From the sequence record MZ189261.1: DNA of 64,000 nt. One strand, written 5' to 3'. This document shows positions 1 to 47,202 of this stretch, one piece after another. The notes beneath the pieces are model-generated. The model did not search any database, was not told the DNA's origin, and saw only the letters and a list, made by a program, of their open reading frames with translations. Within the stretch, counting starts at the first letter, position 1. Each line of letters begins with the position of its first letter. The position numbers were made by a program, and so were the translations under genes. The stretch is from Escherichia phage S143_2.

Positions 1-202
1 AAGTTCCTGCGTCCGAAAGAGCTTCTTCATAGTACCCATTAATTTCTTTAAGAGTCCTACGTTTACCACCAGGACCATCAACAGTAATTTTCCATTTACC
101 TGTAGAAGTGCGGCTCGGTGGCTCAACTTGTTCAATCCAAATATAACCACCTTCAACGCGTTGGTTGGCTGATTCTGCAATAAATTCTTTATACGTTTTC
201 AT
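1..202 (-). CDS. internal-protein-like capsid-targeted protein, 3' end outside window
   Basis: ATG at 202; translation MKTYKEFIAESANQRVEGG... matches the T4 IP N-terminal capsid-targeting sequence (MKTYQEFIAE); runs off window edge; absent from ORF track because incomplete. Confidence 0.5.
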   Translation of the reverse strand, partial: MKTYKEFIAESANQRVEGGYIWIEQVEPPSRTSTGKWKITVDGPGGKRRTLKEINGYYEEALSDAGT

Positions 203-266
203 TTTTTGTTTCCTTGTTTGTTTTGATAGAGTAATTATACCATATTAATACTTAAGCGTAAACTGT

Positions 267-527
267 TTAAGCTTTACCGCCAGAAATAATTCCGAAGTTG
301 TTAAAATCGTATCCAATATCGTCAACATCTACTTTAGGGCTTGCTACAACATAAGCAATTTCACTACGTTTTGCATAGGTGTTGATTTCTTTACCATCGC
401 CACCTAAGAAAAAATACCCATTACGTTTTAATGAGCCAAAGTCTTCCGCATCACCAATGAAAGCTTTAACTTTAAATTTGGGGCTTTTGGCATCTGCTTC
501 AGAGATAAATTCTTGGTACATTTTCAT
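267..527 (-). CDS. internal-protein-like capsid-targeted protein (86 aa)
   Basis: N-terminus MKMYQEFISEA resembles T4 IP capsid-targeting sequence with L/I-x-E cleavage motif for gp21 protease. Confidence 0.55.
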   Translation of the reverse strand: MKMYQEFISEADAKSPKFKVKAFIGDAEDFGSLKRNGYFFLGGDGKEINTYAKRSEIAYVVASPKVDVDDIGYDFNNFGIISGGKA

Positions 528-533
528 TTTTCC

Positions 534-947
534 TTAGTAAATTGATTTACCATAGTATTTGTACCAAGTAGGGCGCTGAGCAATTTTTTCATCTAAGCGT
601 GCTTGACTTATCGCAATGGACGCTTCGGACGGGACATAATTATTACGAAATTCGGCAGGGATGTCGGAAATATCCTGGACAGTCGTGTCCTTGATTTTGA
701 AACCACGTTTCAAGCATTCAGCGATTAGCTCGATTTGTCGTAAACGTAAAAATTCAAGTTTGTCGTAAAAGAATGTTACGTGACCTGTGCCTAAGATAAA
801 TGTTGGAGAGATTTTAAAATCCTTTACACGTTTACCGTTTTGAACATGTTTACGGACTGCACCAAATACGCGTGGTAATTCACGATACTCAGCCATAAGA
901 TGTTGGTCGGTCAGTTCAGAAACAAGTGTTAAATTGATACGAGTCAT
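534..947 (-). CDS. denV: endonuclease V, pyrimidine-dimer DNA glycosylase
   Basis: [31 protein letters not shown]... near-identical to T4 DenV as I recall it; start trimmed to ATG 947 preceded by GGAGGAA. Confidence 0.9.
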
Positions 948-1005
948 AAGTTCCTCCAAGTAGTTGATGAATGTATAGTATCAAAGTCCTTGGAGGAAGT
1001 AAACA

Positions 1006-1287
1006 CTATTTTTCTGAAGCGCCTGAAATATATTTTTCAAGACGTTGTTTCATCAGCGAGCCGTTCTTAGCGATTTCTTCCGGTTTATCGCACATACGCA
1101 ACAAGGCTTCAAGCTTAACGATATCGCTGGTACGTTCAAATTTGCGAGTATCTATCTTACTAGCAAGTTCAGAAATACGTGCTAATAGACTTTCAGCTTC
1201 AACCAAAGCTGCACCTAGCTTAGTTGCAAATGTGTCAGTAGCTTCGTTAAGAATAGATTCTGATAAAAATTCACTATATGTTTTCAT
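1006..1287 (-). CDS. internal-protein-like capsid-targeted protein (93 aa)
   Basis: Starts [11 protein letters not shown] at internal ATG 1287; ATGA stop/start overlap with e. Confidence 0.55.
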
Positions 1288-1772
1288 ATATACGCTTTCC
1301 AAGTTCCTGTTTTAAATGTTGAGATTACGCGTTTCGCGCGATTAGGTGTCTGACGATACCATTTAGATTGGGCTAGATTTACTGCCGCTTCGTCCCAACG
1401 TTTCTGTTGAAGCATACGAAGAGAATTAGTAAAACCAGCGACGCCTGCTACACCCATTTGGAAGACCATATTGACCAATGCACATCGACGAACTGCATCT
1501 AAAGAATCGTATACCGGTTTAAGTTTAGCATTACCCAAGATTCCGCGAACAGCTTTATCAACGTCTTCATTAAATAACTTTTCAGCCTCATCAAGGGTAA
1601 TTGTACCGTTGCATTTACGTCCGATCATTCTGTCAAGTTCAGCTTTAGCTACGGCTAAAGACGGGTTCTTTGTTACTAAATGACCTATGCCAATCGTCCA
1701 AAAGCCTTCAGTGTCTTTGTATAAAGTCAGTCTAAGACCTTCGTCATTACGAAGCATTTCAAATATATTCAT
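1284..1772 (-). CDS. e: endolysin, T4 lysozyme
   Basis: [23 protein letters not shown]...TIGIGHL about 80% identical to T4 lysozyme by eye, catalytic Glu11/Asp20 present; start trimmed to MNIF with GGAGGT SD. Confidence 0.93.
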
Positions 1773-1773
1773 A

Positions 1774-1799
1774 ATACCTCCCACGTTTATAGGAGGTAT
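1774..1799 (-). promoter_or_regulatory. inverted repeat pairing the e Shine-Dalgarno (ATACCTCC / GGAGGTAT), loop contains TATAAACG
   Basis: Perfect 8-bp inverted repeat directly upstream of e ATG; mirrors the known T4 e early-transcript translational block. Confidence 0.6.
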
Positions 1800-1806
1800 T
1801 TATTAC

Positions 1807-2265
1807 TTATAGGATGGTAGTGAGCACCTTATATAATGATTTGCCCATTACATATTCCCATTGAGAAGGTTTAATTAAAGCGAATGCATCAAATTCAGGA
1901 ATCTGTCGTCCGTCTGGGAATGTATGATAGGAATTACAAACACTGTTTCTGAATTGCTCGTGCTCTACAGGGATGGTATATAGGAACAGATGAATATTCT
2001 TATTGTCTGAGTAATGATGTTCACCTAGGTCTTTCAGGAAGGCAGGGTCATATTGTGTAAACCCAGTTTCTTCTTCGCATTCACGAATAGCGGCTTCGAT
2101 AGGAGATTCGCCGGGCTCGACACGACCTTTAGGAATATCCCACCGATGAGCTAAAGAACCTTTAGGACGAGAACCAGTTACACGCCCCATGAATAATTCT
2201 TTATCTTCGGTAAGGAAAATAATACCAGCTGATAGTTCTTTCACTTTATTTTTCTTACTCATCAT
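1807..2265 (-). CDS. nudE: Nudix hydrolase
   Basis: Nudix box GRVEPGESPIEAAIRECEEETGF; position immediately upstream of e as T4 e.1; start chosen at MSKKNK after AGGAA. Confidence 0.85.
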   Translation of the reverse strand: MMSKKNKVKELSAGIIFLTEDKELFMGRVTGSRPKGSLAHRWDIPKGRVEPGESPIEAAIRECEEETGFTQYDPAFLKDLGEHHYSDNKNIHLFLYTIPVEHEQFRNSVCNSYHTFPDGRQIPEFDAFALIKPSQWEYVMGKSLYKVLTTIL

Positions 2266-2753
2266 CTCAAATTCCTGCATTCGGTAATAAAACGTTCAAC
2301 TTCATTATTCTTGGCCTTTATCTTGTCTTTATGTTCTTGTAAACTACTTTTAATAAGATTAATAATGATGGCGGTGGTGCCGCCGCCAATGATGCCACCA
2401 ACAACACTTATGATAATAGATGCTAATAAGATAGCAATAATATCAACAAAACCTAAAGAACTCACCTTAGTACTGAAAAACCATATAGACGGTACAAATA
2501 TAATCCATCCTGTTATCCATTGGCACTTATTGAAAAACTTTTCAAGCTCAGCTTGAGTTGTTTGTATTACTTCATCGATAGGTTGATATCCATTAATGTA
2601 TCTGTTCACGATAATACCTGCTGGCTGGTCGATTTTAAATTCTTGGCAAATACGTTTCACTAAGTAGGATGGACAGGATGTCCAATCTACTGAATAGTAT
2701 GAAATACCTTCATTGCCATCGTCTATATTAGACCAATATGTTTTGTTAATCAT
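2262..2753 (-). CDS. small membrane protein (163 aa), two predicted TM helices, unknown function
   Basis: Hydrophobic stretches WITGWIIFVPSIWFF and FVDIIAILLASIIISVVGGIIGGG; C-terminal ERFITECR motif. Confidence 0.6.
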   Translation of the reverse strand: MINKTYWSNIDDGNEGISYYSVDWTSCPSYLVKRICQEFKIDQPAGIIVNRYINGYQPIDEVIQTTQAELEKFFNKCQWITGWIIFVPSIWFFSTKVSSLGFVDIIAILLASIIISVVGGIIGGGTTAIIINLIKSSLQEHKDKIKAKNNEVERFITECRNLR

Positions 2754-3439
2754 TACCAGCCTTCCATAGGGAATTCCAGATAAACTTGAGCATTGACACG
2801 AATTTCATTGGTAATCTTTTTAACTCGGTCTGTATTACGAGATACACGTCCGAACCAACGCCATCCATTACTAATTGCACGAGAACCAGTGTGCCATGTT
2901 TGCCAATCAAACTGAAGAAGAGTACGATCTGGAGCTTCCCATTTCTCTAGTTCACCTTTTTCAATTTTTTCGAGGACTTCTTTGTGCCACTGGCGATAGA
3001 TAAGTTCGCCATCAGGAATCTGACTGAACTCTGCAGTTCCTGTTGCAAAATGAGTAGGACACACATCAGCGTTAACAAGACCAAGAATATGTTCAGACAA
3101 ATAGCGAGGATTGTCATAATCAGGTTGTCCTGCAGTAATAAAGTGTTGACCGACTGGAATATCTGGGCGAGGAACATCATCATGGTGATATCCAGGAATA
3201 GCAGGATACCAACCGGGCATCAGCATGTGAACTCGTGAATCAAATACTACATCCGAGTCTTTCCAATCGTCAGGAAGATTTTGGATAAAGCTACGAGTAA
3301 TCGGGCCACCATTATCAAAAGCAAAATTCAAATCGCAGTTAAAGAACATAGGCTCGTTTTTAATCTGGTCGTTTTTAATCGCATGAGCAAAACCACCTAC
3401 TGCACGAGCTTGGCTATTAAACACTTTAGAACTATTCAT
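2753..3439 (-). CDS. hypothetical protein (228 aa), His/Asp-rich motif
   Basis: Long ORF with SD GAGGAAAA; motif GYHHDD...HF; no family recognised. Confidence 0.6.
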   Translation of the reverse strand: MNSSKVFNSQARAVGGFAHAIKNDQIKNEPMFFNCDLNFAFDNGGPITRSFIQNLPDDWKDSDVVFDSRVHMLMPGWYPAIPGYHHDDVPRPDIPVGQHFITAGQPDYDNPRYLSEHILGLVNADVCPTHFATGTAEFSQIPDGELIYRQWHKEVLEKIEKGELEKWEAPDRTLLQFDWQTWHTGSRAISNGWRWFGRVSRNTDRVKKITNEIRVNAQVYLEFPMEGW

Positions 3440-3440
3440 A

Positions 3441-3746
3441 TTATTTTCCTCGACATTCTTTAATGAAATTTTCTAGATTGGTAGATTCAATAGCTTTTTT
3501 ACGAGCTTCTGCGTGTTCTTCTTCAGACAATTTACATTTATAATTGACCCAGACATTATGGTCGAAACTAGTCGTGGCATATAATAACAATGCTCCAACG
3601 AATAGCAAAAACGGTGATAAGAATACGAAACCAGGAACACCATCCATATCGTAGGCCTTTTGTAATACTGCAACAGAAAGAGCTGCGTAAAAAGGTGATG
3701 CAAATATTGTTAAAAGACCGATTCGGTTGGTTTCTGTTAATTTCAT
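3441..3746 (-). CDS. small membrane protein (101 aa)
   Basis: Two hydrophobic helices; C-terminus ...LENFIKECRGK; SD GAGGAGAA; downstream of early-promoter cassette. Confidence 0.6.
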   Translation of the reverse strand: MKLTETNRIGLLTIFASPFYAALSVAVLQKAYDMDGVPGFVFLSPFLLFVGALLLYATTSFDHNVWVNYKCKLSEEEHAEARKKAIESTNLENFIKECRGK

Positions 3747-3764
3747 AATATTCTCCTCATGTTT

Positions 3765-3806
3765 TAATAGGACTACTATATCATAGTCCTATAATTGTGT
3801 AAACAG
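3765..3806 (-). promoter_or_regulatory. early-promoter-like cassette with embedded stem-loop (copy 1)
   Basis: Minus strand GTTTAC (-35) then inverted repeat ATAGGACTA/TAGTCCTAT over the -10 region; near-identical copies at 5059-5101 and 12714-12756. Confidence 0.6.
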
Positions 3807-3816
3807 TTTTGTGAAG

Positions 3817-4773
3817 TTATTTGAAAGGTTTTACCATATGGAAATTTTGTTTGAAACGTTTGACGTAATCATCATGTCCTAAGCTTTGGTACATACTTAC
3901 TACTTTGCTGTAGTTTTCCCAGGCATACTCACGGAACCAACCAGAGGTGATGCTTGTACAGACTTTTTCCAATGCCATCATAAAACTGGCTTCAGGGTTA
4001 ATTTTAAAGTCATTAGGAATTTGAGAACGTTCTAATGCTAGTACACATGATTCTTCGTATACACCGGCCAATTTGACCATTTCTGGTAACGATTCAAACT
4101 TCTCGCGTGAGGTCATGACTTCAGAACCGTCTTTCATATAAAATGTATACGCTGGACGGTCTGTTAGTGCAATGGCTTCATGAATAGTATCATGGTCATA
4201 CGTATAGATGTCATCTTTAAAGAACGCACTTTTAGAAGTGTCAAGAACTGGGTGAGCATAGTTCAAGGTTTCTTTCTGGCGTTTCAGCATAATTTCAGTA
4301 AGTTCATCGTTCAGTGTAACACCTTTACCACGAAGATACTGAATATGGTTCATAGTCTTTAAAAAGAATGGATTATTTTTCTTGAAACGATGAGACAACT
4401 TAATTGCAAGACATATCTCAGGAGTTGCCCAGTAAAACCCGTTCAAACGGTCTTTAGTCAAATTTTTCTTGGCGTATTTTAAAAGGTCATAAGAAGACGT
4501 GAAATCTTCAGGAGTGAGTTCACCTACTAATTCACGGACATTAGTGATTGCCGGAACAATATATGCTTCAAAATGAGTTTCGCGTCCATTATGGAAGCAT
4601 TTGAAAACTTGGACATCAGGGTTATCTTGATGAACATATACACCCATCATTTGATTTTTGAATGCATTCCAAGAACCTTGGTCTGCAATAAAGTCCCAGT
4701 CACTATTTTTGATAGCGTTAGAATCAATAAGACCATGATAGTGAAGTGCACGAGAACCAATAACTAACATCAT
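3817..4773 (-). CDS. hypothetical protein (318 aa), possible nucleotidyltransferase-fold N-terminus
   Basis: Strong SD GAGGAAAA; N-terminal LVIGSRA...SDWDFIA loosely fits the G[GS]...DxD NTase pattern; no family recognised. Confidence 0.6.
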   Translation of the reverse strand: MMLVIGSRALHYHGLIDSNAIKNSDWDFIADQGSWNAFKNQMMGVYVHQDNPDVQVFKCFHNGRETHFEAYIVPAITNVRELVGELTPEDFTSSYDLLKYAKKNLTKDRLNGFYWATPEICLAIKLSHRFKKNNPFFLKTMNHIQYLRGKGVTLNDELTEIMLKRQKETLNYAHPVLDTSKSAFFKDDIYTYDHDTIHEAIALTDRPAYTFYMKDGSEVMTSREKFESLPEMVKLAGVYEESCVLALERSQIPNDFKINPEASFMMALEKVCTSITSGWFREYAWENYSKVVSMYQSLGHDDYVKRFKQNFHMVKPFK

Positions 4774-4801
4774 AATATTTTCCTCGGATTAATTCATTAA
4801 C

Positions 4802-5053
4802 TTAAATTTCACGACATGCGATATCATATTCATCCCAGAGGTCATCGTGTGAAGCCTCTACCAATGGAACGATTGTACCATTTATGTCTTCATTATAAGG
4901 GCAAATTGTACAGTGCGCATCTTCGAATCGGATACCTTTGTGTTCAGATTTTTTATAACGCATATCGAATATCTTTGCAAATTTTTCACGAGTAATGGTT
5001 TTACCAACCACTTTGGTTCCGATACTTTCGTAATAAATCATTGTGGACTCCAT
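4802..5053 (-). CDS. hypothetical protein (79-83 aa)
   Basis: ORF downstream of early-promoter cassette; alternative start at 5041. Confidence 0.5.
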   Translation of the reverse strand: MESTMIYYESIGTKVVGKTITREKFAKIFDMRYKKSEHKGIRFEDAHCTICPYNEDINGTIVPLVEASHDDLWDEYDIACREI

Positions 5054-5058
5054 TTAAT

Positions 5059-5101
5059 TTGATAGGACTACTATAACATAGCCCTATCTTGTTGTAAACT
5101 G
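5059..5101 (-). promoter_or_regulatory. early-promoter-like cassette with stem-loop (copy 2)
   Basis: gataggactactataacatagccctat...gtaaac, about 85-90% identical to copies at 3765 and 12714. Confidence 0.6.
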
Positions 5102-5103
5102 TT

Positions 5104-5301
5104 TTAGCAAGAATAACTAGACGATACCCAGCCTTGAACAGTGATACTATTGTGGGATAATGAGATCGCGTCCTGGAGATTCAGACCTGCGTTATCTTCA
5201 ATCCATAACGTAACTTCTTCGCGTTCTTCTGTTGCAATTTGGAACAGGTTTTCCAGAGCAGCTACTGCCGTACGTACAGCACAATCTAATTCACGAGACA
5301 T
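5104..5301 (-). CDS. small protein, paralog family member (65 aa)
   Basis: C-terminus ...QGWVSSSYSC shared with the next two ORFs. Confidence 0.5.
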   Translation of the reverse strand: MSRELDCAVRTAVAALENLFQIATEEREEVTLWIEDNAGLNLQDAISLSHNSITVQGWVSSSYSC

Positions 5302-5310
5302 ATGGTTTCC

Positions 5311-5583
5311 TTAGCAAGTGTGAGAAGATGCGATCCAACCACCAGTTTCGAGGCTTAGGTTGTAGTCGTATTGGTAAACGTCGGCCCATTCAGCATAGCC
5401 GTTTTTTGTACAACGTTCAAGGTCGGCTTTAAGCTGTCCGGGTGAATGATATGTTCCACCCATACCATAAGCTGGATACAAGTCGAATGTTGTGTTTTGT
5501 TTATCAGCAATTTCTTTGGCAGCCTCAATAGCTGCATAGATTTTTGCTACAGCTTCAGCCAATTCGGTTTGTTCTTTAGACAT
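5311..5583 (-). CDS. small protein, paralog family member (90 aa)
   Basis: C-terminus ...GGWIASSHTC; stop overlaps TAAGGAA SD of next gene. Confidence 0.55.
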   Translation of the reverse strand: MSKEQTELAEAVAKIYAAIEAAKEIADKQNTTFDLYPAYGMGGTYHSPGQLKADLERCTKNGYAEWADVYQYDYNLSLETGGWIASSHTC

Positions 5584-5592
5584 AGTGATTCC

Positions 5593-5898
5593 TTAGCACA
5601 ACGCAGAAGACGAAACCCAAGCACCTTCAGTAATAACGTAACCGTTACCTTCACGCTTAACATCGCCACCATTATTTTCAATTTCATCTTTCATCCACTG
5701 GGATACGATTTCACCCTTAGGATAATAAGTACGACCGCTACCATAATCACCTACAGAAAATGATACGGCATATTGGTCTGCGATCTTTGTTGCTTCTTCT
5801 TCGATACGTTCAGCTTGATTCAGAAGTTTATAAATTGCGTCTGAAGCGGATTTGGCATCATTAAACTCTGGTACTTTAATTTCAATAATCTTACTCAT
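5593..5898 (-). CDS. small protein, paralog family member (101 aa)
   Basis: C-terminus ...GAWVSSSALC; ATGA overlap with upstream gene. Confidence 0.55.
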   Translation of the reverse strand: MSKIIEIKVPEFNDAKSASDAIYKLLNQAERIEEEATKIADQYAVSFSVGDYGSGRTYYPKGEIVSQWMKDEIENNGGDVKREGNGYVITEGAWVSSSALC

Positions 5899-6254
5899 TT
5901 TCTACATTCCTTAATAAAGTTTTCGATTGTTTCATTTTCACGTCTAGCTAGGAGTTCATTATAACTAATCATTTGAGAAGCGTAAACCTTTTTATTTTTC
6001 TTGTTATGGTTTATAAAGTCGTAGTAAAAATAGACTACAGTACAAAAGGATGCGATGGATGCAAAGGCTTGGGTATACCGTAAGTCCTGCCATTGGTCTG
6101 TGAATCCACCAGTGTTCCCTATAAATCCTAACACAACGCCGTCAATAAGAAATCCAACTAATCCAAAGGCAAATCCCATGCCAATACTCATAATAAAAAT
6201 TAGAATGTTCTCACCAAGAGAAGGCCATACGGTTAAGAGTTGAGGCTTTTGCAT
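5895..6254 (-). CDS. small polytopic membrane protein (119 aa)
   Basis: Multiple hydrophobic helices; C-terminus ...IENFIKECRK. Confidence 0.6.
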   Translation of the reverse strand: MQKPQLLTVWPSLGENILIFIMSIGMGFAFGLVGFLIDGVVLGFIGNTGGFTDQWQDLRYTQAFASIASFCTVVYFYYDFINHNKKNKKVYASQMISYNELLARRENETIENFIKECRK

Positions 6255-6628
6255 CTTATTTCCTTAACGAATTCCATAGCTTCTTCATATTCATACTTTT
6301 TAACAGCTTCATCATACTGAGCTTGGGCTTTTGCGCACTGAACTTTCCATTCTCTTAATCGGGCTCTGTGATGACGGCCTTGGTGCCAATATCCTGCCCA
6401 ATTAATAGGCATTAATAAAAACGGTACAATAAGTGGTGCGACGAACATTAATGAAAACGCTGCATCAGACGATATAACTTTATTGGAATCTAAAACAGCT
6501 CCTATAATCATAAAGATTAAAAACGCTAAAGCTAAAATAGGGCCAAATAGTACTTCATTTGGGATTAATTTACGCTTGTATTCATACGCCCAGGGCTTAC
6601 TTGGCATGTATAGGGTTGGCTTTGACAT
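6233..6628 (-). CDS. small membrane protein (about 131 aa)
   Basis: Start trimmed to ATG 6628 (track start was TTG); TM segments LFGPILALAFLIFMIIGAVL and AFSLMFVAPLIVPFLL; C-terminal EFVKEIRCK. Confidence 0.55.
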   Translation of the reverse strand: MSKPTLYMPSKPWAYEYKRKLIPNEVLFGPILALAFLIFMIIGAVLDSNKVISSDAAFSLMFVAPLIVPFLLMPINWAGYWHQGRHHRARLREWKVQCAKAQAQYDEAVKKYEYEEAMEFVKEIRCKSLNS

Positions 6629-7193
6629 ATTCTCTACATTCCATAATAAATTGCTCAAGGATTAAATTGTTAGTGAAATTAGGACTAACAACCATGGTTT
6701 CATAAAGCGCATCAATAGCACTTAAAGCATCAACTCTTTTAAGCAAAGGCTTGCCTTCATACATAGTTTCAGAATCGACGATTAAAGTGAAGTAGTATTT
6801 TTTATTATTGACCAGAACTTCTGTATCAATATAAAACATGTTAGACCTTAAAAGCTTGTCTCTAAAGCCTATGTAATCATCTGAACGTTCACTGATATAG
6901 TCCCATTCAGTGTTTAAACAACAAACAGACCACGTAGGAGCAACGAAATCAGTGAATCTAATATCATGGTCTGCAACTAGTTTAGCAATAGCTCCGATAT
7001 CATGAATCATAATACCTGGGGCTAATAAAGATTTTCGGTTATTTGCATATTCAGTTGTCTCATAAGAAGACGACCAGTACCATTTACGTCCAGTTGCAAC
7101 ATATCGTAATGAATCAACTAAAGACGTAGGTGGATTTACCTTATCTCGGAACTCTTCGAACATTGAGTCAATATCATTATTTTGGTTTCGCAT
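6597..7193 (-). CDS. hypothetical protein (about 198 aa)
   Basis: Start trimmed to ATG 7193 with AAGGAG SD; contains EQFIMECR near C-terminus. Confidence 0.55.
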   Translation of the reverse strand: MRNQNNDIDSMFEEFRDKVNPPTSLVDSLRYVATGRKWYWSSSYETTEYANNRKSLLAPGIMIHDIGAIAKLVADHDIRFTDFVAPTWSVCCLNTEWDYISERSDDYIGFRDKLLRSNMFYIDTEVLVNNKKYYFTLIVDSETMYEGKPLLKRVDALSAIDALYETMVVSPNFTNNLILEQFIMECREYVKANPIHAK

Positions 7194-7210
7194 GTTAACT
7201 CCTTTATTAT

Positions 7211-7238
7211 CCAAAAGGAGGACCGGAGTCCTCCGTAT
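7211..7238 (-). terminator. intrinsic terminator-like hairpin (GGAGGAC..GTCCTCC + T-run on minus strand)
   Basis: Perfect 7-bp stem followed by TTTTGG on the minus strand. Confidence 0.5.
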
Positions 7239-7242
7239 TATT

Positions 7243-7836
7243 TTATTTCAAAGAGTTAATATATTCTTGTACATCAGCAGAAGTGGTTTCGACACCAGCT
7301 GGAGTACCATTGAACGTTTCAACACGAGTCAGAGTGTCTTCGATATCAACCTTAGTCAGTGCAGCGATTTCAATTACATCATCAGCCGTAGAGATACCAA
7401 GGGCATTAGCTGCTCGAGTTTCACGAATGTATTCGAGTTTGATTGCCAGATTCTGACGAGCATCGTCAAGTTCAACAACCTTACGAGCAATTTCAATTCG
7501 CATAGCGGCATACCCGTCAGCTTTTGTATTAAGTTGTTCGGCAGTTCGACGATACAGAAGACCAAGCTTGGCATGCATGGTAACATCTTGTCCTTCAGCC
7601 AGGAGCTTACGAATTTCACGTTCCTTAGAAGCGGCTTGCTTATTCTTTTCAATAACAAGTTCGCGAATACGTTTTTCTTCATTAATAGATTTAACAGAAG
7701 CCGTTTTTAGTTCTTTGATTTGGGTAATCAACTTATCTGCAGCTGCGTTATACTGTTCTTCGACAGTCAGATTTTTAGCCATAGCAGTACCCAGTTTAGT
7801 GCGGATGAATTCAACAAGTTTCTTCAGTGTGTTCAT
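7243..7836 (-). CDS. coiled-coil protein (about 197 aa), unknown function
   Basis: Start trimmed to ATG 7836 with AAGGTAA SD; heptad-rich helical sequence; own early promoter upstream. Confidence 0.55.
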
Positions 7837-7865
7837 ATTATTACCTTTCAATTGGTGGTTTATTA

Positions 7866-7900
7866 TCCAACGAGAGCATTATACTCTGCTCTCAAGAGTT
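7866..7900 (-). promoter_or_regulatory. early-promoter-like element with inverted repeat GAGAGCA/TGCTCTC
   Basis: Minus strand ATTTAC -35-like box followed by a stem-loop over the -10 region. Confidence 0.4.
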
Positions 7901-7906
7901 TGTAAA

Positions 7907-8134
7907 TTATTTTTTAATCAAATTGACATAAAACTCGGCGTCTTCCGGGTGCATGCCTTCGCAGTATTCTTCAACCATGAACTTCTTAACAGCTTCATAA
8001 GGACCACTCAGATTAAGCTCAGTTGTCCAGAACTTGGAATCTTGGACTGAATCGATACGAACTTCAGGGTGTCGGTTGCGAATAACTTCTTCGGTGTATT
8101 CATAATCAACGACATCAATACTAACTTTAGCCAT
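7907..8134 (-). CDS. hypothetical protein (75 aa)
   Basis: ORF with upstream promoter-like element. Confidence 0.45.
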   Translation of the reverse strand: MAKVSIDVVDYEYTEEVIRNRHPEVRIDSVQDSKFWTTELNLSGPYEAVKKFMVEEYCEGMHPEDAEFYVNLIKK

Positions 8135-8180
8135 TTTATTTTCCTCTTGATTTGATGTGATTACTATAACATAAACTTAC

Positions 8181-8345
8181 TTAGATGTAAATTATTTCAA
8201 CGTCACCTTTAGCTGCTTTATAACCTTCAGCCCAAGATACAACAGAGTTTTTATCCGAGGATTCAAATTCAGGCATTGGACTTTCACCAATATTCACACA
8301 GTATGTTTCTTCATTTTCGTCAAACCAAATAATTAAAGTAGTCAT
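8181..8345 (-). CDS. hypothetical small protein (54 aa)
   Basis: Hand-translated MTTLIIWFDENEETYCVNIGESP...; preceded by GGAG SD inside a cassette duplicated at 45783. Confidence 0.4.
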   Translation of the reverse strand: MTTLIIWFDENEETYCVNIGESPMPEFESSDKNSVVSWAEGYKAAKGDVEIIYI

Positions 8346-8386
8346 TTTGTTTACTCCACTGTAGTTGATAAGTCTATAGTATCACC
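8341..8386 (-). promoter_or_regulatory. promoter/RBS/start-codon cassette (copy A)
   Basis: 44 of 46 nt identical to 45783-45830, including the ATG and first codons. Confidence 0.6.
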
Positions 8387-8412
8387 ATCCTTGGTGCTTG
8401 TACATCATTATT

Positions 8413-8718
8413 TTATTTTTTCCAACTTAACAACTTGTAGTGTCCTTCATTCATACGTGGTTTATCCCAAGAAATACTAATATACGATTCACTGTCAATA
8501 GAAGTCGCCGGGTTTTTCTCTACCGTAAGACCTTCACTTTCCAGCCATTCAATAGTATTTGCGCATAAATCTGAAGAACACCTCATCGGAAACCGGCAAG
8601 ATTTTTCACCTTTAGCTGCAGTGTTATACATCTTTTCTAAAATACGCTTTTGCACGTTTTTAAAAATAGTTTCAGCAGATTCTTCAGATTTTTTATTCAG
8701 TTCGGTATAAAGACTCAT
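8413..8718 (-). CDS. hypothetical protein (101 aa)
   Basis: ORF with SD GAGGAAAA. Confidence 0.5.
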   Translation of the reverse strand: MSLYTELNKKSEESAETIFKNVQKRILEKMYNTAAKGEKSCRFPMRCSSDLCANTIEWLESEGLTVEKNPATSIDSESYISISWDKPRMNEGHYKLLSWKK

Positions 8719-8827
8719 AACATTTTCCTCATGTTTTTATAGGTCTATAGTAACACATCTAGGGAAGAAGTAAACAACTTTTTCAGTAAGTTATAGACCC
8801 CCTAATGGGGACCGAAGTCCCCATTCT

Positions 8828-9454
8828 TTACTTACGAGTTTTTGCATACTGAGCAGCGTCAGCAGCCAAACGACCTGCCTGACGAAGTTTTTCTTTAATC
8901 GCATCGTGAAGTGGTTGAGTATACTTCAAACCTTCGATAGTCAAATAAAGACGATAAAGGTCTGGGGTGTCAAGGTTGTTGATATGTTGGCCATTACGAA
9001 GAATATTGAATTCACGAACGAGTGAAGATGTATCAGATTCAATATCACGAACAAGCGAAGATAGTTGTTTATATTTTTTTTCCAGGCTAGAAGTATCAAA
9101 CTTAAGAGCAGGAGCTTTAGGAGTTGCTTTTACTTCCGGCTTAGGCTCAGGTTTTGCTACTGCTTTAGGGGTCGCAGGTTTAGGAGTGGTAGGAGCAGGT
9201 TTCACTTTAGGCGAACCCGATTTAGCAGAAACACCACCACTAACAATATCTTTGAATGCTTTAGAAGCTCTGTAATATTCTTTTTGGCTGGAAGTGTCGA
9301 TACCGTACATGGCTTGAACGTTTTTGAAAAACTCTGTACTAGTTTTTGTACCAGAAATAGCATCGTAAGCAGCTTGCCATTTCTCTTTTGTCATACGTAC
9401 ACCGGCTTCGGTGATTACTTCCGTTTCGGCTAAAAATTCATTAAAAGTATACAT
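8828..9454 (-). CDS. internal-protein-like capsid-targeted protein (208 aa), Pro/Lys-rich central region
   Basis: N-terminus MYTFNEFLAETE resembles the IP targeting sequence; late promoter TATAAATA 36 nt upstream. Confidence 0.5.
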   Translation of the reverse strand: MYTFNEFLAETEVITEAGVRMTKEKWQAAYDAISGTKTSTEFFKNVQAMYGIDTSSQKEYYRASKAFKDIVSGGVSAKSGSPKVKPAPTTPKPATPKAVAKPEPKPEVKATPKAPALKFDTSSLEKKYKQLSSLVRDIESDTSSLVREFNILRNGQHINNLDTPDLYRLYLTIEGLKYTQPLHDAIKEKLRQAGRLAADAAQYAKTRK

Positions 9455-9489
9455 TGATGGTCCTTAGAAAGTAGGTTTATTGTTTACTA

Positions 9490-9497
9490 TATTTATA
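9490..9497 (-). promoter_or_regulatory. T4-type late promoter TATAAATA
   Basis: Exact TATAAATA on minus strand upstream of the 8828..9454 start. Confidence 0.6.
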
Positions 9498-9498
9498 C

Positions 9499-9529
9499 AA
9501 AAAAGCCCCAACCTTTCGGAAGGGGCTAT
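9499..9529 (-). terminator. rho-independent terminator
   Basis: Minus strand AGCCCCTTCCGAAAGGTTGGGGCT followed by TTTTTTG. Confidence 0.7.
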
Positions 9530-9829
9530 ATACCTTGTCGGGGTTCCACCTACTAAGGCAAGTGTTTGTACGAAACGCCGGGGTTCGAACCCGGTTATTA
9601 AGCAGTTGACGCTACTCAATATTTTTAAAAGGCCATATCTCGACCATATCCGAACGTTCCGTCAAAAACGCTACTCGGCTTACGGCAAAGATATTTCCTC
9701 GAATCGATAATTCGGTGCGCCGTTTCTGCTGTGGTGTAAGGGGATATTAACAAATCGTAAAGATTTATTAAGACCAGTCCTTACTCAGGGAACATCAGTC
9801 CGACGACTTACCGGTAGCGACCCGGCTTC

Positions 9830-10174
9830 TTATTTTGGCATATCATCAATTTGCTCTCGACGCCGACGCCATAGATTAATCGCTTCATTAACACATTCGG
9901 CGTTTGGTATATGACGGCAATAATATAATGATTCGCGTTTCTGGAACCGATGTTGCAATGGGATTTCGTTTAAAAGGTCTTTACGGTCAAAGTATTCAAA
10001 ACTAGTTAACCCGGAACGGTTTTTAATGAACTTCCAATGACCGAATTCATTTTGAACATAGATGTAATCTGCGTGTTGGTATAACAAATTAATCAATCGG
10101 TCTGAAATAACTGTATCATGTTCGTTAAAATAAAACGTTAAATCATGAACTACTAAGTAAACATTACCTTTCAT
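9830..10174 (-). CDS. hypothetical protein (114 aa)
   Basis: Start trimmed to ATG 10174 with GAGGAAAA SD; the longer track ORF would overlap tRNA-Arg. Confidence 0.55.
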   Translation of the reverse strand: MKGNVYLVVHDLTFYFNEHDTVISDRLINLLYQHADYIYVQNEFGHWKFIKNRSGLTSFEYFDRKDLLNEIPLQHRFQKRESLYYCRHIPNAECVNEAINLWRRRREQIDDMPK

Positions 10175-10192
10175 ATTTTCCTCACTTAAAGT

Positions 10193-10269
<77 letters not shown>

Positions 10270-10273
10270 TATT

Positions 10274-10348
10274 TGGCGGACGTGATAGGATTCGAACCTA
10301 TAACCAATCGCTTAACAGGCGATCGCTCTGCCATTGAGCTACACATCC
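10274..10348 (-). tRNA. tRNA-Asn (anticodon GUU), CCA encoded
   Basis: Acceptor GGATGTG/CACGTCC, anticodon stem ATCGC/GCGAT, loop CTGTTAA, T-arm ATAGG TTCGAAT CCTAT. Confidence 0.8.
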
Positions 10349-10352
10349 AAAT

Positions 10353-10439
10353 TGGTGGGGAGTGATGGAGTCGAACCACCCGAGTCGCAATGACAATGGA
10401 TTTACAGTCCACACCGCTACCTCTACGGGATAACTCCCC
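10353..10439 (-). tRNA. tRNA-Tyr (anticodon GUA), long variable arm, CCA encoded
   Basis: Acceptor GGGGAGT/ACTCCCC, anticodon loop CTGTAAA, T-loop TTCGACT. Confidence 0.75.
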
Positions 10440-10451
10440 TAATTCATAATT

Positions 10452-10526
10452 TGGTGGCCCTGGGTGGAATTGAACCACCATCTGGCGATTATGAGTCGCT
10501 TGCTTGAACCTTCCAGCTACAGGGCC
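10452..10526 (-). tRNA. tRNA with anticodon CAU (Ile lysidine-type by T4 synteny, or Met)
   Basis: Acceptor GGCCCTG/CAGGGCC, anticodon loop CTCATAA, T-arm GGTGG TTCAATT CCACC. Confidence 0.75.
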
Positions 10527-10527
10527 T

Positions 10528-10603
10528 TGGTGCTGATTGACGGAATCGAACCGCCGACCTTCTCATTACAAGTGAGTTGCTCTACCTACTGAGCTAAATC
10601 AGC
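10528..10603 (-). tRNA. tRNA-Thr (anticodon UGU), CCA encoded
   Basis: Acceptor GCTGATT/AATCAGC, D-arm GCTC AGTAGGTA GAGC, anticodon loop CTTGTAA. Confidence 0.8.
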
Positions 10604-10608
10604 AAAAC

Positions 10609-10698
10609 TGGCGGAGGCGATAGGATTTGAACCTATGAGTCGCCGGAGCGACTGCCGGTTTTCAAGACCGGTGCATTAAACCACTCTGCCACGCCTCC
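10609..10698 (-). tRNA. tRNA-Ser (anticodon UGA), long variable arm, CCA encoded
   Basis: Acceptor GGAGGCG/CGCCTCC, anticodon stem CCGGT/ACCGG, loop CTTGAAA. Confidence 0.8.
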
Positions 10699-10700
10699 AG

Positions 10701-10774
10701 TCTCCATACAAGGATTTGAACCTTGGGCCTCCTGATCCCAAATCAGGCGCTCTACCAAACTGAGCTACACGGAG
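10701..10774 (-). tRNA. tRNA-Pro (anticodon UGG), no encoded CCA
   Basis: Acceptor CTCCGTG/TATGGAG, anticodon stem CCTGA/TCAGG, loop TTTGGGA; 2-nt spacer to tRNA-Ser. Confidence 0.8.
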
Positions 10775-10784
10775 TAAATTAAAT

Positions 10785-10858
<74 letters not shown>

Positions 10859-10863
10859 AAATT

Positions 10864-10950
10864 TGGTGCGAGAAGTGGGACTCGAACCCACAAGGAAATC
10901 ATTCCGCAGCATTTTAAGTGCTGTGCCTTTACCAATTTGGCCATTCTCGC
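10864..10950 (-). tRNA. tRNA-Leu (anticodon UAA), long variable arm, CCA encoded
   Basis: Acceptor GCGAGAA/TTCTCGC, anticodon loop CTTAAAA, T-arm GTGGG TTCGAGT CCCAC. Confidence 0.8.
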
Positions 10951-10951
10951 G

Positions 10952-11024
10952 CTGGGAATAAAGGACTCGAACCTTTGCATCCTGGAATCAAAATCCAGTG
11001 CCTTACCAACTTGGCTAATTCCCA
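10952..11024 (-). tRNA. tRNA-Gln (anticodon UUG), no encoded CCA
   Basis: Acceptor TGGGAAT/ATTCCCA (U1:A72), anticodon stem CTGGA/TCCAG, loop TTTTGAT; 1-nt spacer to tRNA-Leu. Confidence 0.8.
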
Positions 11025-11121
11025 ATTATTAACAAAGGCTCTCTAACAAGAACCCTTGATGATAGAGGGTATTAATCAGTGCGATATGAGTTAATAATAA
11101 CAAATAATTCTTAAAGCATAT

Positions 11122-11415
11122 TTACCATTTATGATAATACATATTTACGATGCAGTCAAGACCCAAAGGATTCTTGAAAATATCATATTCAAGAGGACCT
11201 TTTTCCGTTTCAATAAAGAAATCAAAATTTACTGTATTAAATTTACGGTCTTCCTTCACTAATTTAACTTGAGAAGATGAACGGTCAATGTAAACCTTTT
11301 CAACTTCAAAACATGTTAAAATGCCATAATCATCAATCAAGGCTTTAGCCGCGTCTTGATCATATTTATATCCATTTTCAATAGACGATACTTTAGCATA
11401 AAGAATCATTATCAA
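11122..11415 (-). CDS. hypothetical protein (97 aa)
   Basis: ORF; stop overlaps next gene start. Confidence 0.45.
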   Translation of the reverse strand: MIMILYAKVSSIENGYKYDQDAAKALIDDYGILTCFEVEKVYIDRSSSQVKLVKEDRKFNTVNFDFFIETEKGPLEYDIFKNPLGLDCIVNMYYHKW

Positions 11416-11792
11416 CCTTCATCAACAATAGTATGAGTATGAGCATTTACAATTTGCCACCAATCAAAGCGATTAGAACCATACATCAGGTTGTTCTCAT
11501 TTTCTTTGATAATGTCACGGAGTTCATCTTCAGTAGCGGCTTTCGCTATTAAATCAGCATATCCACCGCGAGGATAATAATTATCACCTGCAAAAAGTAA
11601 AAAGTTCGGTTTAATATTATTGAACTCTTCAAGAGTAATAACTTTTCCTGTCGGTTGAACAATCTCTACATATTTATATCCTAATTTTTGAGCAGCATCT
11701 ACTGCTTCAAGCAAAGTATCATGAGCCCATCCAATTTGACAACCTGGCTTTTCAGATGGATTAGCCTGATAATCCGCGTACACTTTATACAT
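11412..11792 (-). CDS. hypothetical protein (about 126 aa)
   Basis: Start trimmed to ATG 11792 with AAGGTG SD. Confidence 0.5.
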   Translation of the reverse strand: MYKVYADYQANPSEKPGCQIGWAHDTLLEAVDAAQKLGYKYVEIVQPTGKVITLEEFNNIKPNFLLFAGDNYYPRGGYADLIAKAATEDELRDIIKENENNLMYGSNRFDWWQIVNAHTHTIVDEG

Positions 11793-11793
11793 T

Positions 11794-11979
11794 CTATTCA
11801 CCTTTTGCAATTTTATCCATAACGATAGCGATTAAGCCGATTAGAAATGCTACTACCAATGAGATAGAATTTTCGGTTGTTGTCAGTAGTCCACAAATGA
11901 ATCCTACAAACATCGAAAAACTAAAAGCCATTGAAGCAATTACTACAGCAACATTACGAATCAGTTCAGCGCGTTTCAT
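11794..11979 (-). CDS. small hydrophobic membrane protein (61 aa)
   Basis: Two hydrophobic segments; early-promoter-like element with inverted repeat GATAGGGTA/TACCCTATC upstream at 11998-12040. Confidence 0.45.
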   Translation of the reverse strand: MKRAELIRNVAVVIASMAFSFSMFVGFICGLLTTTENSISLVVAFLIGLIAIVMDKIAKGE

Positions 11980-12048
11980 TTTATTCTCCTCGGTAGTTGA
12001 TAGGGTAATAGTATCACTACCCTATCTAAAAGTAAACGGTTTTATAAA

Positions 12049-12357
12049 CTATTTTATTCCGCGTGATGCAATCGTATTCTGCCGTTTAACGCCAGTTTGT
12101 TTAAAGTTATGATTGTCAAGTTGATCGGTACGAGCAACTCCGAATGATGATTTAATCTTAGCTTTAGATCCTTTAGTTATAGAAATAAACATCTCGGGAG
12201 CCCCTTTCTTAAAGTCCGAAGCAATTACTTCAACACCGTTCTTAGCAAGTGACCTCAGAATTGCTTCCGCGTACTCATCATCAAGACCCGCTTGAGTATG
12301 AATAACGAATGTCTTTGGTGCAGCCGCTTCATTGATAAATTCTTTATAGGTTTTCAT
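12049..12357 (-). CDS. internal-protein-like capsid-targeted protein (102 aa)
   Basis: N-terminus MKTYKEFINEA. Confidence 0.6.
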   Translation of the reverse strand: MKTYKEFINEAAAPKTFVIHTQAGLDDEYAEAILRSLAKNGVEVIASDFKKGAPEMFISITKGSKAKIKSSFGVARTDQLDNHNFKQTGVKRQNTIASRGIK

Positions 12358-12417
12358 TTTATTTTCCTAATTAATTTTGATGAGATAATAATACCACAAC
12401 CCTATTTAAAAGTAAAC

Positions 12418-12690
12418 TCATTTTAAATAAATTGCGTATTTTTTATAACCCGCCGACTCATGACGAAGACCCTTATCATTAGCAAAACGCTCAATGTTGT
12501 TAATTTGATTCTGGTCAAGTTCAGAGATGTCAAACACGAAAAAGTTACGTTTGTTACCAACTGTTACATAGTCAGTTAAATCAATATCATATAGGTAATT
12601 GATGTCAGCAATCAAAGTCTTGACAGCTTTGCTAATTTTTACTTTTTCGTTAAAAGTAGCTTCATTGATAAATTCTTTATAGGTTTTCAT
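12418..12690 (-). CDS. internal-protein-like capsid-targeted protein (90 aa)
   Basis: N-terminus MKTYKEFINEA; in the position of T4 ipI next to 57B. Confidence 0.6.
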   Translation of the reverse strand: MKTYKEFINEATFNEKVKISKAVKTLIADINYLYDIDLTDYVTVGNKRNFFVFDISELDQNQINNIERFANDKGLRHESAGYKKYAIYLK

Positions 12691-12713
12691 TTTATTTACT
12701 TGAGGTCGTTTAT

Positions 12714-12756
12714 TTGATAGGACTACTATAACATAGTCCTACAGGTGTGTAAACTG
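12714..12756 (-). promoter_or_regulatory. early-promoter-like cassette with stem-loop (copy 3)
   Basis: gataggactactataacatagtcctac...gtaaac; minus strand GTTTAC -35 then TAGGACTA/TAGTCCTA stem-loop. Confidence 0.6.
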
Positions 12757-12767
12757 TTTTGTAAAAA

Positions 12768-13453
<686 letters not shown>

Positions 13454-13457: not shown

Positions 13458-14192
13458 TTACCTTAAGATTGTTTCAATTTTAGAATAAAGCTCTTCTAAA
13501 GAGCCGTCGTTTGTAATAACTAAATCGCCTTCTTCAATAGGCAACCCAGCTTCTGTAATATGTTTATCGGTGGATTCCGTACCAGAGCGAACCACATGAA
13601 TAACTGTAGCACCCATCGCTCTAGCGGTTTCCATTTCATGGACTTGGCGGGTATCGGTCACAACGTAGTAATCGAAATCGCTTCCAATATAATCCATATA
13701 GTTTAATGCAAAAAGTTTAACCCAATACATACGGTCAAATAAATTAACGACAACATCCGTACCGAGGGCTTGCATAAGACGGCGGATTGACCATGTGTCG
13801 TTGATATTATTTATAGCTTCGCGCAGGGCTTCATATGGTTTAATATCTAGATACGAATATCCACCTTCTAACGATGATAATACTTTAACATTATTAATTG
13901 GTAAATATTGACTTTGCAAATAAATTAGCGCTTCTTCCAATAATTCAATAACATCCAACTTATTGAGATTTAATGGTGTTTCACGGTCGTATCCAATGCC
14001 TTCAAAGTATTCGTATTTCAACTCTGTGAATACATCAGGATTTTCAGCATGCCTACGTTCCCAGGCTATTGCTAGAGCGTCTTTAATCGGATATGCCAAT
14101 TGATATTTTACTGATTTAAAGTTTGAATTGATGTAATCAGCAGTAGTATCTTTGCCACTACGTTTGATGCCACTTAAAAAGATTAGCTCCAT
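13458..14192 (-). CDS. 1: gp1 deoxynucleoside monophosphate kinase
   Basis: MELIFLSGIKRSGKDTTADY... P-loop; length matches T4 gp1. Confidence 0.9.
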   Translation of the reverse strand: MELIFLSGIKRSGKDTTADYINSNFKSVKYQLAYPIKDALAIAWERRHAENPDVFTELKYEYFEGIGYDRETPLNLNKLDVIELLEEALIYLQSQYLPINNVKVLSSLEGGYSYLDIKPYEALREAINNINDTWSIRRLMQALGTDVVVNLFDRMYWVKLFALNYMDYIGSDFDYYVVTDTRQVHEMETARAMGATVIHVVRSGTESTDKHITEAGLPIEEGDLVITNDGSLEELYSKIETILR

Positions 14193-41956: not shown

Positions 41957-42381
41957 TGTATCTTATCCCTGAATCTTATGAATTGGTACTCGAAAATGTC
42001 GAAGCACTTATTCCTGAAGCACAGGGCCGAATCGATGCATTGTCTTCTGCTCTCGATATTGACGATATAAATACTATTATCGAGAACATGCTTGAAACTG
42101 AAACGGATTTAGCTGTTGCAATGGCTTCCATTATTAATGAAGAACAGTTAAATGAGTTTATTGTTAAACATGTTTCTTCTCGTGGTGAAGTCACCCGCAC
42201 TAAAGACCGTAAAACTCGTGAACGTAACGCGTTCCAAACAACCGGTCTTTCTAAAGCAAAACGTAGACAAATCGCTCGTAAGGTCGTTAAAGCTAAAAAA
42301 GCTAACCCTTCAGGCCAAGTTAAAGGCTTGCGTAAGCGTAAAAAAGCTCTTAAACGTCGTAAAGCATTAGGATTAAGCTAA
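41956..42381 (+). CDS. 68: gp68 prohead core protein
   Basis: 141 aa as T4 gp68. Confidence 0.85.
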
Positions 42382-45850: not shown

Positions 45851-45853
45851 CTT

Positions 45854-45861: not shown

Positions 45862-45888
45862 ATCTATATCACATAAGGAAAAAATGCA

Positions 45889-47201: not shown

Positions 47202-47202
47202 G

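Follow-up and report, generated by a model that had tools for sequence, protein, structure and literature searches.

ip9 and ip7, two unrelated internal-protein genes lying side by side in the ipI slot of a Mosigvirus-like phage: a slot content very probably formed by cassette exchange

In phage T4 the interval between trna.4 and 57B is occupied by ipI alone, whereas two genes are found in the corresponding interval of Escherichia phage S143_2 (record MZ189261.1). This raises the question of what the two genes are, how they came to be neighbors and what their products could do for the phage. We addressed it in a stretch of 64,000 nucleotides of this genome (hereafter the window), which by nucleotide similarity is Mosigvirus-like and belongs to the Tevenvirinae. 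We are highly confident that the two genes are ip9 and ip7, situated next to each other in the ipI hotspot, and that cassette exchange formed the content of the slot. The two are unrelated members of the polymorphic T-even internal-protein (IP) set. The genes themselves, the polymorphism of the locus, the common targeting peptide and the model of exchange by promoter/stem-loop elements are already known from literature of 1994-2010, and the initial annotation of the window overlooked this: ip9 and ip7 had already been named and carry annotations in hundreds of GenBank records, and the exchange model had been published.

The initial annotation had described a tandem pair of distinct genes in the ipI position next to 57B, both beginning with MKTYKEFINEA and then diverging (102 and 90 aa), where T4 has a single ipI. 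Each part of this description agrees with our results (Table 1). The open reading frames have the lengths given, BLASTP aligns residues 1-11 of Ip9 and Ip7 only and found no similarity past residue 11, and profile-profile comparison of the two proteins gave no extension past the N-terminal region. As in T4, the pair is bordered by 57B (Acb1) upstream and trna.4 downstream. Upstream of 57B lie a 76-aa open reading frame at the 57A position and then the dNMP kinase gene (gene 1), and downstream of the pair trna.4 is followed by trna.3 and trna.2, with the tRNA cluster beyond in close relatives. Both ip9 and ip7 are real genes, since comparison with orthologues in other phages shows purifying selection on them, with dN/dS values mostly of ~0.1 (0.06-0.58 for ip9 and 0.10-0.28 for ip7).

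Table 1. Positions of the ip9-ip7 locus, its flanking elements and related features in the window.
Feature	Position	Strand	Description	Basis
ip9	12418..12690	(-)	90-aa internal head protein	ORF; phrog_7673 at 9.2e-55
ip7	12049..12357	(-)	102-aa internal head protein	ORF; phrog_2667 at 5.6e-41
57B	12768..13223	(-)	Upstream anchor, 151 aa, Acb1 anti-CBASS family (2H phosphoesterase)	Pfam Acb1 1.8e-58; T4 57B position
trna.4	11794..11979	(-)	Downstream anchor, 61-aa predicted membrane protein	phrog_1692 1.4e-32; T4 and UFV-AREG1 annotations
Element A	12691..12767	(-)	57B to ip9: TTTACA-17-TATAGT, 10-bp stem-loop and ribosome-binding site	Scan, fold, alignment
Element B	12358..12417	(-)	ip9 to ip7: TTTACT-17-TATTAT, without stem-loop	Scan, fold
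Element C	11980..12048	(-)	ip7 to trna.4: GTTTAC-18-TACTAT and 12-bp stem-loop	Scan, fold, alignment
Second copy of element-A type	3747..3816	(-)	Before non-IP small gene 3441..3746	Fold -15.8 kcal/mol, z -3.3; alignment
Third copy of element-A type	5054..5103	(-)	Before non-IP small gene 4802..5053	Fold -16 kcal/mol, z -5.8; alignment
Direct repeat, copy 1	12659..12697	(-)	39 nt, ip9 start, candidate crossover patch	Sequence identity
Direct repeat, copy 2	12326..12364	(-)	39 nt, ip7 start	Sequence identity
Gene 21	42381..43028	(+)	Prohead core serine protease	Pfam Peptidase_S77 2.9e-107
Gene 22	43062..43874	(+)	Scaffolding core protein	Pfam T4_CASP 1.5e-89

The upstream gene product is 93% identical to Q38376, the Ip9 of phage RB15, and up to 98.9% identical to its counterparts in further phages; its entire length is covered by a match to phrog_7673 ('internal head protein'), and tblastn located it in 193 phage records. 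Its targeting sequence comprises residues 1-10 (12661..12690), with cleavage predicted after Glu10 (I-N-E↓A, the arrow marking the cut), and its cargo domain residues ~19-90. The AF2 model of Ip9 (pLDDT 75.7) has an alpha-beta-beta-alpha-beta-beta topology, and the mature protein is predicted to consist of 80 aa with a mildly basic pI of 8.2. An exhaustive HMMER search with the cargo returned 8 representatives only, and the cargo family is therefore small; no bacterial relatives were found in that search.

At 97% identity the downstream gene product corresponds to the 'Ip7 protein' of phage WG01, and at 91% to the T2 'internal head protein 7'; it matches phrog_2667 (likewise 'internal head protein') over its full length and was found by tblastn in 283 phage records. 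Residues 1-10 (12328..12357) form its targeting sequence. The AF2 model (pLDDT 65.7) places a ferredoxin-like beta-alpha-beta-beta-alpha core at residues ~14-72, and the C-terminal tail (residues 74-102) is basic (pI 11) and modeled with low confidence (pLDDT <50). For the mature protein, 92 aa and a pI of 9.85 are predicted. Neither Ip7 nor Ip9 has a significant Pfam or NCBIfam family, PDB profile sequence searches with the two returned nothing below E = 0.5, and their predicted structures gave generic fold matches with no functional lead; a BFVD search with Ip7 returned Ip7 orthologues only.

What the two proteins have in common is the targeting peptide MKTYKEFINE, which is of the MKTYQEFIAE type. 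Across 49 IP genes from 30 loci, M1, K2, E6 and F7 of this peptide are invariant, position 8 is I, L or M in 45 and E10 is retained in 44. The cleavage motif of gp21 is (L/I)-x-E followed by a small residue, and the motif I8-N9-E10↓A11 is present in both Ip9 and Ip7. Within the 64 kb this N-terminus occurs on five genes (four recovered by pattern scan and one by eye), all of them in two loci which match the IP loci of T4. Genes for the portal gp20, gp67, gp68, gp21, gp22 and the capsid protein gp23 are present in the window, and with them the machinery which uses the targeting peptide. The proposal that both genes are capsid-targeted is thus well founded as a prediction of localization, given the I-N-E↓A N-terminus, the full-length PHROG matches, the 93-97% identity to Ip9 and Ip7 and the presence of gp21 and gp22.

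Targeting to the scaffolding core is known to need only ~10 residues (PMC9026906), the T-even IPs are a diverse set with the targeting sequence alone in common (PMC3012670), and the packaging and injection of mature IPs accompany those of the DNA (PMC3012670; PMC12373910). By analogy, the targeting peptide would recruit Ip9 and Ip7 into the prohead scaffolding core, where gp21 would cut after Glu10 (I-N-E↓A) to leave cargos of ~9-10 kDa; these would be packed with the DNA and then injected along with it. Because they would enter with the DNA, the cargos could act before any phage gene is expressed. We consider the packaging and injection of Ip7 and Ip9 very likely, if slightly less certain than the identity of the genes and the origin of the slot content.

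The intergenic regions of the locus show how such genes could be moved. Each of ip9 and ip7 has its own T4-type early promoter, and a third promoter/stem-loop serves trna.4. In element A, upstream of ip9, TTTACA (12753..12748) and TATAGT (12730..12725) are separated by a 17-nt spacer (10/12 promoter matches), and the stem-loop (12717..12742; -15 kcal/mol, z -3.1) overlaps the -10 hexamer. The A-type stem, TAGGACTA/TAGTCCTA, recurs together with its promoter at 3804 and 5099, and the suggestion that the upstream gene sits behind an early-promoter/stem-loop cassette repeated elsewhere is thereby confirmed. The picture of the cassette can be refined, as ip7 has a separate early promoter with no stem-loop, and a promoter/stem-loop, element C, comes after ip7. 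The promoter of ip7, element B, consists of TTTACT (12416..12411) and TATTAT (12393..12388), again with a 17-nt spacer; no stem-loop was found in it, its fold being no better than that of shuffles (z +0.87), and its 3' part aligns with the region upstream of T4 ipI. Some cassette borders therefore lack the full promoter/stem-loop form. Element C, the homologue of the element that precedes trna.4 in T4, has GTTTAC at 12037..12032 and an overlapping stem-loop at 11999..12026 (-16.4 kcal/mol, z -2.9). A second stem type at the ip locus is ATAGGGTA/TACCCTAT. At the locus the stems are AT-rich, in contrast to the GGGG/CCCC type, and as no T-run or U-tract follows them, the sequence gives no evident sign of terminator activity. 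The corresponding elements of T4 and other phages can be aligned for ~75 nt and have different stem sequences. No TATAAATA late promoter was found directly upstream of the ip genes or within the locus, the nearest on the same strand being at 13808..13815 inside gene 1; expression of ip9 and ip7 at the time of head assembly is therefore assumed.

Cassette-mediated gene exchange, which the initial annotation had suggested, and for which it had proposed a synteny comparison across T4-like phages, is borne out by that comparison. We compared 32 loci anchored on 57B and trna.4, which came from T4, four other GenBank phages, IMG/VR contigs and the window, and found the slot content to be variable: targeting-peptide genes number zero in 2 loci, one in 14, two in 13, three in 2 and four in 1, and the 49 IP genes represent 13 cargo families that show no similarity to one another. 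The order ip9-ip7 is present in four loci and the reverse order once, there with divergent family members. Elsewhere ip9 occurs alone (L019) or with a different partner (L001), and ip7 occurs alone (L029, L030 and L036). Two metagenomic loci (L008 and L009) have no ip gene in the slot, and their 57B is 100% and 99% identical, respectively, to that of the window; at the empty site of the former an A-type promoter/stem-loop is joined straight to the ribosome-binding site of trna.4.

The exchange extends to the block as a whole. Between the window and UFV-AREG1 (Tequatrovirus), ip9 is 99% identical, element B 95%, ip7 93% and element C 96%, whereas the core flanks 57B, 57A and gene 1 are only 70-75% identical, and we conclude from this difference that the block was transferred between genera. 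Fifty records carry the two genes as one contiguous block, again with ip9 before ip7 and at 95-97.6% identity, among them UFV-AREG1 and vB_VIPECOMC06, in whose annotation the block encodes two internal head proteins, and in these records the match stops 6 nt upstream of the ip9 ATG. The breakpoints in the slot fall in patches of homology in the promoter/stem-loop, the ribosome-binding region and the targeting codons. New combinations of ip genes very probably arise by homologous recombination between short conserved flanks.

One candidate for such a crossover patch is a direct repeat of 39 nt at the starts of ip9 and ip7, composed of AAATAAA, the ATG and 29 further coding nt (the targeting codons plus the initial two bases of codon 11). 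The two genes agree in all of their first 32 coding nt, a match of a kind seen in none of 100 shuffles, and the identity grows to 39 nt once 7 nt from the ribosome-binding region are counted in. Over the targeting region the two genes are identical at 32 of 33 nt, the highest value among 24 within-genome IP pairs. A general homogenization of targeting codons within genomes was considered and rejected, as mean identity is 26.2/33 within genomes and 25.6 between genomes. Given means so nearly equal, the near-identity in the window is to be attributed to local conversion or crossover and not to a general rule. In addition, three other loci (L001, L007 and L010) have in their first slot the type of 5' end seen in ip9 of the window (ctcaagNaaataaaATGAAAACCTATAAAGAATT), there in front of other cargos, which places at least one junction within the targeting codons.

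For the function of the cargos the literature offers precedents. Ip1, Ip2 and Ip3 are inhibitors of GmrSD type IV restriction enzymes, each of a different one (Silas et al., 2025; PMC12373910), and removal of the targeting sequence leaves IPIII active in the cytoplasm (Srikant et al., 2022; PMC9391042). When ip4-10, with ip7 and ip9 among them, were assayed against GmrSD variants, no reproducible inhibition was seen (PMC12373910, Suppl. Fig. 9). We found no homology of Ip7 or Ip9, in sequence or structure, to a characterized GmrSD inhibitor, and our literature search found no published function or virion proteomics for either protein. By analogy with their characterized relatives, the cargos would most probably be stoichiometric inhibitors of host DNA-targeting immunity, and we regard a counter-defense role for Ip7 and Ip9 as somewhat more probable than not. 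Since all three characterized relatives are specific restriction inhibitors, Ip7 and Ip9, as widespread and conserved candidates for injected proteins, are reasonable choices for host-range and anti-defense screens.

A further indication comes from relatives of the Ip9 cargo outside the T4-like phages. The siphophage Kagunavirus UTEC10 encodes a 72-aa homologue of the cargo without the targeting peptide; its gene is the first in the run of small genes on its strand and follows a gap of ~500 bp, which separates it from a divergently oriented block of replication genes. In Kuttervirus aagejoakim (Ackermannviridae) the match lies at residues ~678-737, in the C-terminal part of a 755-aa protein, and a third homologue lies within a metagenomic protein of 861 aa. 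The two short homologues start at Ip9 residue 19, and the Kuttervirus segment starts near the same position. These sequence comparisons suggest that the Ip9 cargo may be a portable module, which in T-even phages gained the 10-residue peptide and a short linker, and they hint that the target of Ip9 is not specific to restriction of hmC-DNA. If Kagunavirus and Kuttervirus have no glucosyl-hmC in their DNA, that target would be a general early-acting host defense or a host factor. It is possible, and we put this forward only tentatively, that Ip9 is not a T-even-specific factor against hmC restriction and is instead a cytoplasmic early effector which was turned into a pre-packaged, injected one when 18 residues were added. 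Ip7, too, could have a target other than the GmrSD enzymes, and the negative result of the GmrSD screen would then be explained. The homologues that lack the targeting peptide in unrelated phages provide a handle on the defense which Ip9 would counter.

Other accounts of the pair have to be weighed against this reading. The adjacency of ip9 and ip7 in the same orientation, their 39 identical 5' nt and their first rank among the within-genome pairs could all be expected had a single ip gene been duplicated in tandem and its cargo then diverged to an extreme degree, with no need for two independent cassettes. However, the cargos show no similarity past residue 11 by BLASTP or profile-profile comparison, the predicted topologies of Ip9 and Ip7 differ in the models, in other phages ip9 and ip7 each stand alone or have different partners, and homologues of the Ip9 cargo without targeting peptide exist in unrelated phages, while short-patch conversion, or a crossover within the targeting codons, accounts better for 5' ends that are nearly identical. 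Tandem duplication was therefore rejected as the origin of the pair on the dissimilarity of the cargos and the separate occurrence of the genes, and we regard it as extremely unlikely. It is also very unlikely, in our judgment, that the two products are never packaged, that is, that they remain in the cytoplasm as ordinary early proteins whose synthesis comes too early, or yields too little, for head assembly. The presence of early-type promoters only directly upstream, with no late motif within the locus, would fit this account, yet T4 ipI also has an early-type element (GTTTAC-N18-TACTAT with a stem-loop and no TATAAATA), and IPI is a classical packaged protein. Moreover, the strict conservation of the targeting peptide and of I-x-E↓A across 13 cargo families is left unexplained unless packaging is selected, and read-through from upstream late promoters, such as the one at 13808..13815, is possible.

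The remaining alternative accepts packaging and assigns the proteins a physical role, in which basic, DNA-associated proteins would assist in condensing, neutralizing or ejecting the genome, and locus diversity would reflect neutral drift among dispensable fillers. Mature Ip7, with its pI of 9.85 and basic tail, and to some extent mature Ip9 at pI 8.2 have a composition in keeping with such a role; the ip4-10 screen gave no reproducible anti-GmrSD activity, and some close relatives from nature have no ip gene in the slot. Purifying selection (dN/dS ~0.1) and spread across genera argue instead for a specific, selected function, as does the fact that all three IPs of known function are specific restriction inhibitors (PMC12373910), and a stand-alone gene for the Ip9 cargo in a siphovirus that lacks this packaging route is hard to reconcile with a role in packaging. 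We consider a purely physical role improbable.

The observation and its interpretation repeat what has been published on T-even IP loci. The description of the IP locus as a hotspot of gene swapping and the exchange model go back to Repoila et al. (1994), as summarized in PMC2839356. Promoter/stem-loop elements at both T-even IP loci, together with more than 30 IP variants, were reported by Arbiol et al. (2010; PMC2839356), and the elements were proposed there as a possible explanation of the plasticity of the loci (PMC2839356). Elements B and C of the window conform to the promoter form TTTACW-N17-TAYWAT described for T4/PST (Comeau et al., 2014; PMC4122927), and element A does so with one mismatch. 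The IP-associated elements of T-even phages are regarded as analogues, not homologues, of the PeSLs of RB49 and phi1, being T4 early promoters with weaker, AT-rich stems without polyG/polyC (PMC2839356); promoter and terminator activity of PeSLs and the formation of mini-circles were addressed by reporter and inverse-PCR experiments (PMC2839356). Elements A and C combine an early promoter with a stem-loop, as PeSLs do, and the elements of the window also resemble PeSLs in that they are repeated in plastic regions, flank small accessory genes and coincide with insertions, deletions and replacements between close relatives. They differ from PeSLs in their stems, TAGGACTA/TAGTCCTA and ATAGGGTA/TACCCTAT, which have no U-tract, and in element B, which has no stem.

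Among the IPs themselves, Ip9 of RB15 and Ip7 of T2, WG01, MX01 and further phages, whose names follow Repoila et al. (1994), are full-length orthologues, with the same length, targeting peptide and locus. Compared with other carriers of ip9-ip7, the window shows only small differences, namely two targeting peptides that are identical to each other in nucleotides and a different variant of the promoter/stem-loop upstream of ip9. T4 IPI, the precursor of the GmrSD inhibitor IPI*, occupies the same slot behind the same kind of early promoter, stem-loop and ribosome-binding site, and its first seven residues follow the same pattern, MKT(F/Y)KEF. However, T4 has one gene where the window has two, the IPI cargo is unrelated to Ip7 and Ip9 (19-25% identity in forced alignment), and the IPI propeptide has 19 residues, with cleavage at ITE↓A, against the 10 predicted in Ip7 and Ip9. 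T4 Ip2 and Ip3 (IPII and IPIII) carry the same class of 10-residue targeting peptide and share the presumed route of delivery, although their locus lies next to e and denV and their cargos are unrelated to those described here. The window carries three IP genes of its own at its e/denV locus. T4 Ip2 and Ip3 offer the functional precedent for the probable role of Ip7 and Ip9.

In two metagenomic relatives (L008 and L009, IMG/VR contigs 3300030021_000002 and 3300029310_000133), 57B matches that of the window at 100% and 99% identity, respectively, yet neither carries any ip gene between 57B and trna.4, where a gap of 82-83 nt is found. In L008 (4457..4535), the ribosome-binding site of trna.4 is fused directly to an A-type promoter/stem-loop; this junction is a natural 'empty site'. 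The trna.3 and trna.2 alleles of L008 differ from those of the window. The flanking gene 57B (window 12768..13223, minus strand) clearly belongs to the Acb1 anti-CBASS proteins (Pfam match at 1.8e-58), so that a known counter-defence gene directly adjoins the ip hotspot.

On the other flank, window 11122..11979 was compared with the corresponding loci of Tequatrovirus UFV-AREG1 (L003) and vB_VIPECOMC06 (L002), the latter being otherwise the closest Mosigvirus. The trna.2 and trna.3 genes are 97% identical to those of UFV-AREG1 but show only partial matches of 75-83% to vB_VIPECOMC06, whereas for trna.4 the pattern is reversed (79% and 99%, respectively). Mosaicism is thus not confined to the ip genes but reaches trna.2, trna.3 and trna.4, and the opposite identity patterns imply another recombination junction close to where trna.3 and trna.4 meet. 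Just downstream of trna.2, ORF translations and the annotation of the close relatives AV112 and UFV-AREG1 indicate a putative cluster of about ten tRNA genes (window ~10400..11050).

Two observations bear on possible exchange between the ip genes themselves. Codons 3-4 of the window's ip7 are ACC TAT, the same as in the adjacent ip9 (targeting regions at 12326..12364 for ip7 and 12659..12697 for ip9); they are ACA/ACT TTT/TTC in the ip7 of five other phages (L002, L003, L027, L036, T4-like relatives) and ACC TAT, matching the window, in the ip7 of L029 and L030. Short-patch conversion between the adjacent ip9 and ip7 targeting regions may have occurred in the window's lineage. In Escherichia phage OLB35 (MH992122, a record marked UNVERIFIED), a gene annotated 'ip7 protein' (L007 2375..2608; 77 aa, P0017) encodes a chimera: its N-terminal part shares 91% identity with the Ip7 core, and its C-terminal 35 residues share 80% with the end of Ip9; the targeting peptide is absent from the annotation. 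P0017 may be a true ip7/ip9 cassette recombinant or else an artefact of assembly or annotation.

Outside T4-like phages, the Ip9 cargo domain was found without the targeting peptide, in L005, L006 and an 861-aa metagenomic protein (P0037, residues 665-735). The Kagunavirus gene heads its strand's run of small genes, and in the Kuttervirus protein the Ip9-like segment is C-terminal (about residues 678-737).

Coordinates of Ip9 cargo homologues and of the second internal-protein (IP) locus
Feature	Location	Strand	Remarks
Ip9 cargo homologue, 72 aa	L005 3004..3222		Kagunavirus vB_EcoS_UTEC10 (siphovirus)
Ip9 cargo homologue in 755-aa Ackermannviridae protein	L006 994..3261		Kuttervirus aagejoakim; phrog_3867
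Lysozyme e, T4-type	window 1284..1784	-	second IP locus
IP gene next after e	window 1006..1287	-	phrog_3499
denV	window 534..959	-	second IP locus, after first IP gene
IP gene after denV	window 267..527	-	N-terminus MKMYQEFISE; PHROG 2667 (Ip7) match
Third IP gene of second locus	window <=202, past left window end	-	N-terminus MKTYKEFIAES

The motif GTTTAC-N16-18-TAnnnT occurs 16 times in the window (263..12754 and 45847..61177), with 14 matches on the minus strand. When perfect stems of 6 bp or more were strictly required, three of the 16 had one (3804, 12037 and 12754), and folding gave a fourth, with one G-U pair, at 5099. Several matches are followed by small ORFs of unassigned function (e.g., 3441..3746 and 4802..5053), which look like further shuffled accessory cassettes.

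A second IP locus of the phage occupies window 1..1784 on the minus strand, and the phage has at least five IP genes in total. The match of the gene after denV to the Ip7 family is weak (2.7e-20). On the T4 map, ipII and ipIII lie side by side, with e on one side and denV on the other, whereas in the window IP genes lie on both sides of denV.
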